A DNA stretch of 64,000 bases from a virus. Taxonomy: Duplodnaviria > Heunggongvirae > Uroviricota > Caudoviricetes. Position numbers: made by a program. How positions within the stretch are numbered: position 1 is the stretch's first letter; every line of letters begins with the position of its first letter. Positions 49,814 to 52,800 of this stretch are shown here, in pieces. The stretch is taken from IMG/VR virus record IMGVR_UViG_2537561946_000006, one strand, 5' to 3'.

Positions 49814-52800
49814 TGACCACTACACTACCTTCAGATACGATGCTGCCTCTTCACGAGTGAAGATTTCTTCTTCCACCTGGAATCTCCATTTATTGAGTTG
49901 GTATTATTGCGGTAGGTCTGGATATCATTGAGCAATGAACAGGCCTCATCGAGTGTGAGGCGGTGTTATTTCATGGTTAGTCCTTGCGTAGCTCGCTGAT
50001 TCTTCTGTAAGTCTCTGGTGCTTTGTTTCCGTGTATCTTCATTTCTGACTTCAACAGAGCAACGAGGGAATCCCATTCGTTGAGGATGCCTTTGAATGCC
50101 GGAACGCGCTTTGCAACCTTGTCGAATGAATCTCTGATTTCTGGAATCTGCTCAACAAGTGCAACGCATCGTCTGAAATCGGCTGCGTCATGTGGAGCAC
50201 CGAAGCTATGACCATAGATATTCTTTTTCAGTCCACATGCGATTGAGGCAAGAGTTGCGCTACTGATGCCAACATCGCCAGTCGATTGCCATTTCAAAAC
50301 CTTCATAGCCAAATCTGACATTTCTTGTCTCCAATAAAAAAACCGCCATCAGGCGGCTTGGTGTTCTTTCAGTTCTTCAATTCGAATATTGGTTATGTCT
50401 GCATGTGCTATCTGCGCCCATATTATCCAGTGGTCATAGCAGTCGTTGATGTTCTCTGTTTCGATAACCCTGTTGAATGGCTCTCCATTCCATTCTCCTG
50501 TGACTCGGAAGTGCATTTATCATCTCCATAAAACAAAACTCGCCGTAGCGAGTTCAGATAAAAGAAATCCCCGCGAGGGCGGGGATGTTAAGTCGGTGGG
50601 GGTACAGTATGGATATCGAAAATTATTGCGCGATTTTCATTACTCCCCTGGGAAAACATTATCTGGCAAGCATACGTTGTTGATGCTGTTTCACAACACG
50701 TAAACGTAAGCTGTCATAGGCCCAATTGTAGAACATGGTATATGGTAGAAAGAAAAGGAAGAATCCTATCTCTAGTGTAAAAGCCTGTAACAGACTGACG
50801 CTCAGAATCCAGGACACCATAATGACGCCGATCGCGATAAATCCACTTTCAAAGCCCAAAGCATGGAATGCACGAACTTTTGCAGTTCGTTTTACCTGAT
50901 GAGCAGGCCAGTAGCGATCAAATAGCATGTTATAGATGATATTCCAGATCATTGCAGTTGAAGCCAACAAGATAGTCATCCCGCCCATTTCGAGTATAGT
51001 TCGCTGCATTAACCATGCTGTGGTGGGGGCCAGAATCGCAGTGGCAATTCCTTCAAAGCAAATAGCGTGAAAAATACGCTCAAGTAACGATCTGCGTTGA
51101 ATCGCATTATGTTGCATAACTTACCTTTCTTACAGTTTCGACCGCGTTATGGAGTTGTGAGATTTTTATCGATTTATGTGATATATAAAAGATAGATACC
51201 ATCGAAAAAATTGATAGATTATGCGTTACTCACTTGAAGCGTTAAGTACATTTGTTGAAGCGGTTTCCTGTGGCTCCTTTTCTGCTGCGGCACGAAGATT
51301 ACGCAAAAGTCAGTCCGCAGTCAGTACGTCAATTGCCAATCTTGAGGTCGATCTTGGTATATCATTATTCGATCGCTCTTCGCGAGAACCTGTGCTGACA
51401 GAGGAAGGAAAGAAAGTATTGAGTTACGTTCATGCGATTTTGTCAGCCAGTGAACGTCTTGAGGAGGTGGCGGTTTCGCTTGCCGGAGAGACTGAAGCTC
51501 GTCTGACGTTTGTGCTTTCCGATACCCTACACCCTGACTTATTAGAAGACATCATGGTGCAGTTTGATAGTCAGTTTCCACATACTGAGTTAGAGGTTTT
51601 AATTGGTGAGGATGTCGATGTCATCGATCTTTTGCAAAAAGAACGAGCGCAGATCGGCTTAATTGAGTCTCGGGAACACTACCCCACCGATATTGGCTCA
51701 ACCCGTTTACCGATGCAAGCGTGGATGGGCATTTATGTTTCGGCGTCACATCCACTGTCTGCAGAAAAAACAATCCAGCGGGAACAACTTCATTCATGGC
51801 GAGAACTTCGTCTTAATACTTATATCGATAACCGGGAGATGATTGCCCGTGGACCGGTTTGGTCTGCACCTAACTATTTGTTGTTACTCAGTATGGCCGT
51901 ACAGGGATTTGGCTGGTGCTCTCTGCCCTGTGCTCTGGTTGAGGAGTTTGCAACAGAAAAACCGCTGGTTCAGCTCGACGTACCTGGCTGGCCAAAGGCA
52001 ATTTCTATCGATCTGCTTTGGAATAAAAAATCGCCACCAGGCGCGGCTGGAAATTGGCTTAAGCATCATTTACAGCATATCAATGCCCCAAATAGTCGAA
52101 CTTAGATTAGTTAAAATATGGAATCCTGAAATAATCTATGTTGATATGTGGAGCCATCTTCCAGGCTCCCACCTAAATCATGTTAGCAGTTCCATTTTTT
52201 TGATGATTTCCGCATGAGCATCATCGTTATCCCCAGCGACAAATTGAATACAAAACCAGTGCTACCGCCATTGCAATTCCTACCGTTGCGAATGCTTCAG
52301 GCCAGCTCATTGATTCACCTCCTGCGGCGGTTCTGGTAGTGGCATCCAATTGATTACATCGCATTCAGGGATGCTGATATCATCACCAAGCCACCCTTGA
52401 CCTTCAGACCAGCATTGCGCGTAATACCCGTATTCTGTGTTCACTACGCACCACTGCGCGTCGTTCGGCATTCGCTCACTACAGCTTATCCAACTATCCG
52501 GAGTTACCGGAAGCGAGAACGGCAGCACATCTCCGTGAACAAGTTTTTGCTGTGACAGGTTATCCAGAACTTTCTGTACTGCTGCATCACCGAATACACC
52601 AAGCGCATCTGCCATAACTCCTACAACCTGATAAGCCTCAGCGCATACCGTGGATAAACCATCCGGAATTACCGGAGAGTTGCCGGGTTCTTTAATGTGC
52701 AAGCGAGGCTCACCATCTTTTGGCTCAGGCCACTGGCGCTCCATGTTGATCTTCAATTTATCTTCCATAGCAACGTTAATTTCAGCATCGCTGATGCCAG

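Follow-up and report, generated by a model that had tools for sequence, protein, structure and literature searches.

We identified a PACE-family efflux gene and a divergent LysR-type regulator gene as cargo of lambdoid prophages of Escherichia coli, starting from a single viral sequence of 64,000 nucleotides (IMG/VR record IMGVR_UViG_2537561946_000006; the whole stretch is called the window here). The two genes very probably form a self-contained lambdoid moron, a pump together with its cognate regulator, which was imported from the chromosome of a relative and has spread from phage to phage. We base this on the family and architecture of the genes, their position among phage genes, their distribution over E. 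coli genomes, their native locus in other enterobacteria and the purifying selection that they have been under. The features of the locus are listed below by their coordinates in the window.

47180-47225, tRNA-Thr 3' fragment of 46 nt (att core)
47240-48400, minus strand, tyrosine integrase gene of the thrW-type remnant prophage
48576-49824, plus strand, IS3-family insertion sequence of 1249 bp with a CTA target duplication, splitting the excisionase gene
49977-50321, minus strand, phage gene (114 aa, phrog_1229) that accompanies the pair in most contexts
50349-50516, minus strand, phage gene (55 aa, phrog_676) that accompanies the pair
50536-50586, minus strand, two tandem intrinsic-terminator-like hairpins with T-tracts, 3' of the PACE gene (fold z = -4.4)
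50659-51117, minus strand, PACE-family transporter gene (152 aa; BTP domain present twice; TM1 with the conserved residue Glu22)
51118-51220, no strand, divergent control region of 103 bp with two predicted LysR-type boxes in conserved blocks
51221-52105, plus strand, LysR-type regulator gene, AceR-like (294 aa; HTH_1 and LysR_substrate domains; best NCBIfam family AceR)
52110-52204, plus strand, long imperfect terminator-like hairpin ending in U7, 3' of lysR (z = -3.2)
52307-53089, minus strand, phage dATP/dGTP pyrophosphohydrolase-DUF551 gene (dATPase), the right bound of the cargo

A PACE transporter with a divergent LysR-type regulator

The first-pass annotation of the window had described the minus-strand product as a four-TM, AceI-like PACE protein of 152 residues with duplicated RxxHAxxFE and WN motifs. 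We recovered the open reading frame with the same coordinates (50659-51117, minus strand), and its product is identical to RefSeq WP_001164448.1, as annotated in L001, one of the E. coli carriers described below. The hydropathy of the protein is compatible with four transmembrane helices, in agreement with that description. Profile searches place it in the PACE family: Pfam PF05232 (BTP, "chlorhexidine efflux transporter") matches two stretches of it with 149.4 bits in total, and it passes the cutoffs of the NCBIfam models NF033664 (PACE_transport, "PACE efflux transporter"; 169.8 bits, cutoff 80) and NF033665 ("multidrug/biocide efflux PACE transporter"; 205.6 bits, cutoff 165). The two halves of the protein are 35% identical to each other (E = 1e-6). 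The motif RxxHAxxFE does occur twice, as RIFHAICFE at residues 14-22, which include Glu22, and as RAFHALGFE at residues 82-90, whereas a strict WN is present only once, the WN at residue 58 being aligned with a YN at residue 130. The likeness to AceI does not extend to orthology, since the AceI equivalog model NF033663 gives only 93.8 bits against a cutoff of 180; the protein belongs with the enterobacterial PACE group, of which members from Salmonella, Klebsiella, Enterobacter and Yokenella have been assayed (PMC4337561). A sequence search of the PDB found no relative.

The plus-strand gene (51221-52105), also at the coordinates first assigned to it, encodes a 294-aa LysR-type protein with matches to HTH_1 (71.2 bits) and LysR_substrate (74.5 bits). 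Its top NCBIfam family is AceR, with 126.9 bits, far under the equivalog cutoff of 500 bits. A divergent LysR gene adjoining a PACE gene, here 103 bp away, is the arrangement of aceI-aceR, as had been pointed out from the sequence. Within the 103-bp spacer we find two ATC-N9-GAT (T-N11-A) dyads, at 51168-51182 and 51201-51215, spaced by 33 bp. Both lie inside blocks that are kept across 19 enterobacterial orthologous spacers, and these operator blocks, conserved across genera, are also present in the prophage copy. The two conserved predicted boxes are consistent with the LysR protein being an operator-binding activator of the pump gene. A promoter consensus scan gave sites no more numerous than in shuffled sequence.

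Terminator-like hairpins bracket the pair, as proposed. Two tandem hairpins on the PACE-sense strand (50586-50567 and 50555-50536) follow the PACE gene, in a stretch that is common to many lambdoid phages, and the long hairpin 3' of lysR folds better than expected by chance, with 0 of 200 shuffles folding equally well. The latter was not reported by a simple terminator scan and was found by shuffle-based folding. The GC content of the pair has a slightly lower range than that of its flanks (0.42-0.49 versus 0.45-0.52), but composition is no useful discriminator here.

The prophage that holds the pair

The window contains two lambdoid prophages in tandem. Positions 1-47179 are a separate and apparently complete prophage, and to the right of it lies the one that bears the pair, a degraded lambdoid remnant running from 47180 to about 63500. 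The pair is located between int/xis and an ea22-exo-bet-gam block. Its placement in the early region of a lambda-like prophage by the first-pass annotation was thus correct, while the picture of the host prophage has to be amended to that of a degraded remnant with a complete neighbour on its left. The genes flanking the pair belong to phage families (phrog_1229, phrog_676, excisionase and dATPase). To the right of the dATPase gene are found Ea22-like, TraR, exo, bet and gam genes, a truncated P gene, an inverse-autotransporter gene and a hydrolase gene. Since the immunity region is gone, the remnant prophage is dead. The window's host also carries genes for the effectors NleB and NleF.

Distribution in E. 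coli and among phages

By searching 5426 complete E. coli genomes for the 1.68-kb segment in full we found it in 14, with an identity of at least 99.6%, in agreement with the statement of the first-pass annotation that PACE genes are uncommon in Escherichia. In all 14 carriers the pair lies inside lambdoid prophage DNA. Seven have the thrW remnant with IS3; L001 was inspected directly, and the other six were inferred from contiguous matches. Four have a mini-remnant of about 3.5 kb at argW with the order torI-114aa-55aa-PACE-LysR-truncated dATPase-truncated intS-tRNA-Arg, and one has an IS-rearranged derivative of this mini-remnant, with IS3, IS30 and IS66 in place of the intS end. A near-complete argW prophage, which carries emrE as well, is present in strain Rb-50. 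The remaining carrier, soil isolate VCSW7, has an apparently complete lambda-like prophage adjacent to torS. Its genes include int, xis, exo-bet-gam, kil, cIII, N, cI, cro, cII, O, P, ren, nin, Q, lysis, terminase and portal, the lambda order being read up to the portal gene, where the examined stretch ends; its traR has an internal stop.

A look-up of the exact PACE protein returned 977 contigs, and among the longest of them the argW mini-remnant was the commonest context. The 1.37-Mb scaffold L101 has exactly the order of the window (int-IS3-114-55-PACE-LysR) beside proA. In L102 the pair lies at a fourth site, next to ybhC, where att-lambda is classically located, together with a lambda-type Int. 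In IMG/VR the identical protein occurs on four viral contigs, one of them 58.6 kb long. The stretch 49911-52348 is common to the thrW and argW prophages, and a sister thrW prophage in O55:H7 that is without the pair has 166 bp in place of window positions 50591-52489. The pair thus sits between bona fide phage genes and is missing from an otherwise homologous prophage, as is characteristic of a moron.

These data bear on whether the pair could be a conserved E. coli chromosomal locus that merely adjoins a prophage. The pair is indeed chromosomal in other Enterobacteriaceae, with yqeF and yqeG as its neighbours in both of the species checked, and in some E. coli genomes hardly any phage DNA remains around it. 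However, it is present in just 14 of the 5426 complete genomes, its copies are spread over four att sites and have phage genes on either side each time, and the yqeF-yqeG interval is empty of it in every E. coli genome, which refutes this reading; we give it next to no probability. As the first-pass annotation had claimed, the pair is prophage cargo, and it belongs to the lambdoid gene pool.

We also searched 50,697 phage records. At the DNA level no phage in them had the pair, and only the shared terminator stretch was matched; at the protein level no isolated, sequenced phage had a PACE gene. Five PACE protein matches in these records were rejected as phage carriage, being on large, bacterial-looking and seemingly mislabelled contigs (Salmonella houtenae, 691 kb; "Acinetobacter phage MD-2021a", up to 379 kb). 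PHROGs contains no PACE family. With neither an isolated phage record nor a PHROG family for PACE, explicit phage carriage is unusual, though nothing new in kind. None of the E. coli plasmids had the pair, and plasmid matches were mostly to megaplasmids or chromids.

Most copies of the pair sit in dead remnants, and the argW mini-remnant resembles a single deletion event that was then inherited. The pair could accordingly be seen as a functionless passenger in Escherichia, spared by chance when deletions trimmed the prophages. The E. coli homologue has a phenotype of only about two-fold and STY3166 has none (PMC4337561), and the Escherichia copies, which differ by only 0-4 substitutions, are too alike to show selection since capture. 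Yet both open reading frames are intact in 11 of 11 Escherichia copies checked, and on all four prophage backbones each copy that was examined retains its reading frames, LysR boxes and terminators unbroken. The spread of the exact protein over so many contigs and a low long-term dN/dS (given below) also speak against a mere passenger. We judge chance sparing to be improbable and prefer to see the pair as a moron that would be active in its host.

The native locus and the origin of the pair

A scan of relatives with one genome per species revealed 80 loci outside E. coli, in Citrobacter, Salmonella, Enterobacter, Kluyvera, Leclercia, Lelliottia, Klebsiella and others. In all 80 an orthologous LysR gene is divergently paired with the PACE gene, at a distance of about 100 bp. 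Two species were checked for the gene order, C. amalonaticus and Salmonella, and both have kduD-kduI-yqeF-[lysR-PACE]-yqeG. In E. coli the yqeF-yqeG gap is just 254 bp in 5419 of 5426 genomes, and a pair at this position was covered in 0 of the 5426. Of the Citrobacter region, just the two outer ends are matched by the 254-bp spacer of E. coli, which makes the loss a clean deletion.

Compared with the nearest Citrobacter, the prophage copy has identities of about 83% (PACE) and 80-82% (LysR), and of 77-79% at the nucleotide level, and none of the sampled donors exceeds 84%. Since even the nearest relatives are only about 83% and 80% identical, the donor is unsampled. In a neighbour-joining tree the prophage pair falls in the Citrobacter/Salmonella clade, near C. 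amalonaticus, on a long branch. Values of dN/dS against Citrobacter were 0.05-0.09, with synonymous sites saturated, and in these sequence comparisons they show long-term purifying selection on the pair. Owing to the saturation, an old origin in the Escherichia lineage is indistinguishable from one in another genus, and an ancient Escherichia-lineage copy may have been the source. Homology to the native locus is confined to 50659-52077 and ends at the gene ends. No yqeF or yqeG remnants, which would be a signature of specialised transduction, were found at the ends of the cassette. Simple aberrant excision was considered as the capture route and is not supported, since int and xis lie between the cassette and att.

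A proposed mode of action

For the activation logic, the substrates and the benefit to the host we propose the following scheme. The moron would combine a proton-coupled PACE pump with the AceR-like LysR activator that belongs to it, and would reside in temperate lambdoid phages of Escherichia. Its source would be the chromosome of an unsampled member of the Escherichia/Citrobacter/Salmonella clade, from which the two genes would have been copied along with the operator region that they share. The LysR protein is predicted to bind the two ATC-N9-GAT boxes in the 103-bp spacer and, when bound by an inducer, which could be a cationic biocide (e.g. chlorhexidine) or a short-chain diamine (e.g. 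cadaverine or putrescine), would activate a weak PACE promoter. The pump would act as a dimer, Glu22 of TM1 would provide the coupling to H+, and the compound would be exported across the inner membrane. Own promoters, together with terminators on both sides, would allow expression in the lysogen without regard to phage repression; given its own control region and terminators, the cassette should act independently of the phage, also in remnants. Recombination from phage to phage would have brought it into prophages at thrW, argW, torS and att-lambda.

Much of this scheme is modelled on better studied relatives. PACE pumps are dimers and electrogenic drug/H+ antiporters in which the TM1 glutamate, E15 in AceI and located within RxxHAxxFE, is essential (PMC9045395, PMC7382281). 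Each of the PACE genes studied so far has a divergent LysR regulator; once its regulator is deleted, the A. baylyi pump gene is no longer induced by chlorhexidine, and for A. baumannii the regulation of aceI by AceR has been studied (PMC4406071, PMC5961012). When the PACE gene ECTW07793_0407 of E. coli TW07793 was cloned, the chlorhexidine MIC was 0.39-0.78 ug/ml, compared to 0.195-0.39 ug/ml for the vector, and the acriflavine MIC was 6.25 ug/ml, compared to 3.125 ug/ml (PMC4337561, Table 1). STY3166, a close Salmonella homologue, gave no phenotype (PMC4337561). By analogy the window protein may export biocides or diamines.

The real role could also be to export short-chain diamines that the cell itself produces (cadaverine, putrescine), for example under acid or gut stress, with biocide resistance being incidental. 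Such a role would rival only the substrate part of our explanation and not the architecture. One point against it is that CadB and PotE are already present in E. coli. Another is that the diamine data come from AceI, a protein of another clade (PMC9045395), whose model the window protein matches with 93.8 bits against the cutoff of 180. On the other hand, short-chain diamines have been proposed as physiological PACE substrates (cited in PMC9045395, PMC8458285), the native pair has long been inherited vertically in enterobacteria and is older than biocides, and the enterobacterial homologues show a weak biocide phenotype (PMC4337561). We regard a primary role in diamine export as possible, if short of probable; the moron reading of the locus would stand with either substrate.

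Implications

The gene family, its pairing with a regulator and a phage-flanked copy in E. coli are already in the literature. To this our analysis adds the organisation of the pair as a lambdoid moron, its presence at four att sites (at one of them in an apparently intact prophage), the native locus between yqeF and yqeG and the clean loss of the pair from that locus in E. coli. As a rule, PACE genes belong to the core genome and are inherited vertically, and reviews describe the movement of the rare accessory copies as unclear. The locus shows one concrete route, in which pump and regulator were captured together into the int-proximal accessory region and then passed across backbones and att sites. 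We tentatively suggest that lambdoid temperate phages are a previously unidentified vehicle for PACE in Escherichia, and that a regulated lysogenic-conversion cassette restores the module lost from yqeF-yqeG and is kept on prophage decay through selectable tolerance of biocides or diamines. If so, this would be the first documented phage-borne PACE system. The locus is also an example of a gene lost from a lineage being brought back by phage. Since the window's host has the NleB and NleF genes, the locus is of relevance to the surveillance of biocide tolerance in pathogenic E. coli; its practical importance is limited because the sole measured phenotype of an E. coli homologue is about two-fold.

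Comparison with known systems

PACE genes have been reported in E. coli as four clusters, each in at most 0.2% of strains (PMC4406071, PMC6195760), and as sometimes being linked to mobile elements (PMC4406071). The remark in the first-pass annotation that PACE transporters are not known as phage cargo was therefore overstated, since copies in E. coli with transposase and phage sequences as neighbours had been published (PMC5840245). A closely matching published case is the AceI homologue of E. coli TW07793 / KTE84 (ECTW07793_0407, EII93401), for which the Glu22 numbering and the description "flanked by transposase and phage" match the E22, the IS3 and the integrase of the window (PMC5840245). 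From this numbering and flank description we infer that ECTW07793_0407 is the window PACE protein. The published work on TW07793 describes neither the lambdoid backbone nor the att sites nor the native locus.

The prototype, AceI-AceR of A. baumannii, is a PACE pump with a LysR activator. It shares with the window pair the four-TM structure, the tandem BTP domains, the duplicated RxxHAxxFE, the TM1 glutamate and the divergent LysR gene over a short spacer (PMC4406071, PMC5961012, PMC7382281). However, the two pairs are not orthologous by their profile scores (AceI 93.8 against 180 bits; AceR 126.9 against 500 bits), and aceI is a core chromosomal gene whereas the window copy is prophage-borne. 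Closer are the chromosomal yqeF-yqeG pairs, such as that of Salmonella Typhi STY3166 and the Citrobacter, Enterobacter, Klebsiella and Yokenella homologues (PMC4337561), which have like genes, orientation, spacer (about 100 bp) and operator blocks, with identities to the window pair of 64-83% for PACE and 65-82% for LysR. These pairs are vertically inherited, whereas the window pair is without a yqeF/yqeG flank and lies among phage genes.

As accessory prophage cargo the pair resembles lambdoid morons in general (bor, lom, sopE, stx). A parallel in function is EmrE, the SMR pump of the cryptic lambdoid prophage DLP12, which is likewise a small four-TM cation/biocide efflux protein kept as cargo in defective remnants (PMC5840245 on SMR in prophages). 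EmrE belongs to another transporter family, and the PACE cassette differs from it in having its own dedicated regulator. The two also differ in position, emrE being in the nin/replication-proximal region and the PACE pair in the int-proximal early-left region.

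Further cargo and an insertion sequence in the remnant prophage

In the degraded lambdoid prophage that holds the PACE/LysR pair, the replication gene P is truncated and is followed by an autotransporter gene and a hydrolase gene (window 56831-62170), which are further non-phage cargo within the remnant:

57539-61090, inverse-autotransporter gene (intimin/invasin-like), intact, 1183 aa
61127-62170, alpha/beta hydrolase gene

The inverse-autotransporter gene is intact in the window, whereas its counterpart in the thrW remnant of strain 2015C-4136CT1 has a frameshift and is disrupted by IS66. 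An insertion sequence interrupts the excisionase gene in this remnant:

48576-49824, IS3-family element, 1249 bp, with terminal TGTAGTGG repeats and a 3-bp target duplication (CTA)

In 2015C-4136CT1 the stretch equivalent to window 49825-50535 is deleted, and the same IS3-family element adjoins the deletion.

The left-hand prophage at thrW

A second lambdoid prophage, apparently complete, occupies window 1-47179 in tandem arrangement at thrW. The features below belong to it, apart from the att core fragment listed last:

10445-11494, DNA methylase
11544-11796, tRNA-Met and tRNA-Arg
12877-14727, sialate O-acetylesterase-like gene
41167-42147, NleB/SseK type III effector gene (602 bits)
43755-44324, NleF-like type III effector gene
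45673-46425, AraC-type regulator
47180-47225, att core fragment

The host of the window DNA was probably an attaching-and-effacing E. coli.

Copies of the pair at argW

Among long contigs carrying the exact PACE protein, the most frequent context is a mini-remnant of about 3.5 kb at argW, which four of the complete genomes inspected (L003, L005, L007 and L104) have in identical form. Here a single deletion joined the dATPase gene to intS and the remaining prophage was lost, leaving torI and two small phage ORFs together with a PACE/LysR pair that is still intact; an IS-rearranged derivative of this mini-remnant is seen in a further complete genome (L006). In strain Rb-50 the argW prophage is near-complete and contains, besides the PACE pair, an emrE (SMR) gene (30089-30421 of locus L002), so that two small cation-efflux pump genes reside in one prophage.

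The native yqeF-yqeG site and plasmid-borne PACE genes

The native lysR-PACE pair has been cleanly lost from E. coli (yqeF-yqeG spacer at L092 2414-2667; compare L012 5937-7598). This E. coli spacer measures 254 bp, and its middle ~100 bp have no match in Citrobacter. A tRNA-Gly gene adjoins yqeG; we take it to be glyU, an integration site for islands and phages, and it might be relevant to the first capture of the lysR-PACE pair.

A PACE gene with 73% identity to the window copy is present on two Enterobacter hormaechei plasmids of 51-59 kb:

NZ_CP114989.1, 42216-42659, PACE gene
NZ_CP126871.1, 57207-57650, PACE gene

These plasmids may represent a second, plasmid-borne route of mobilisation for the enterobacterial PACE group.
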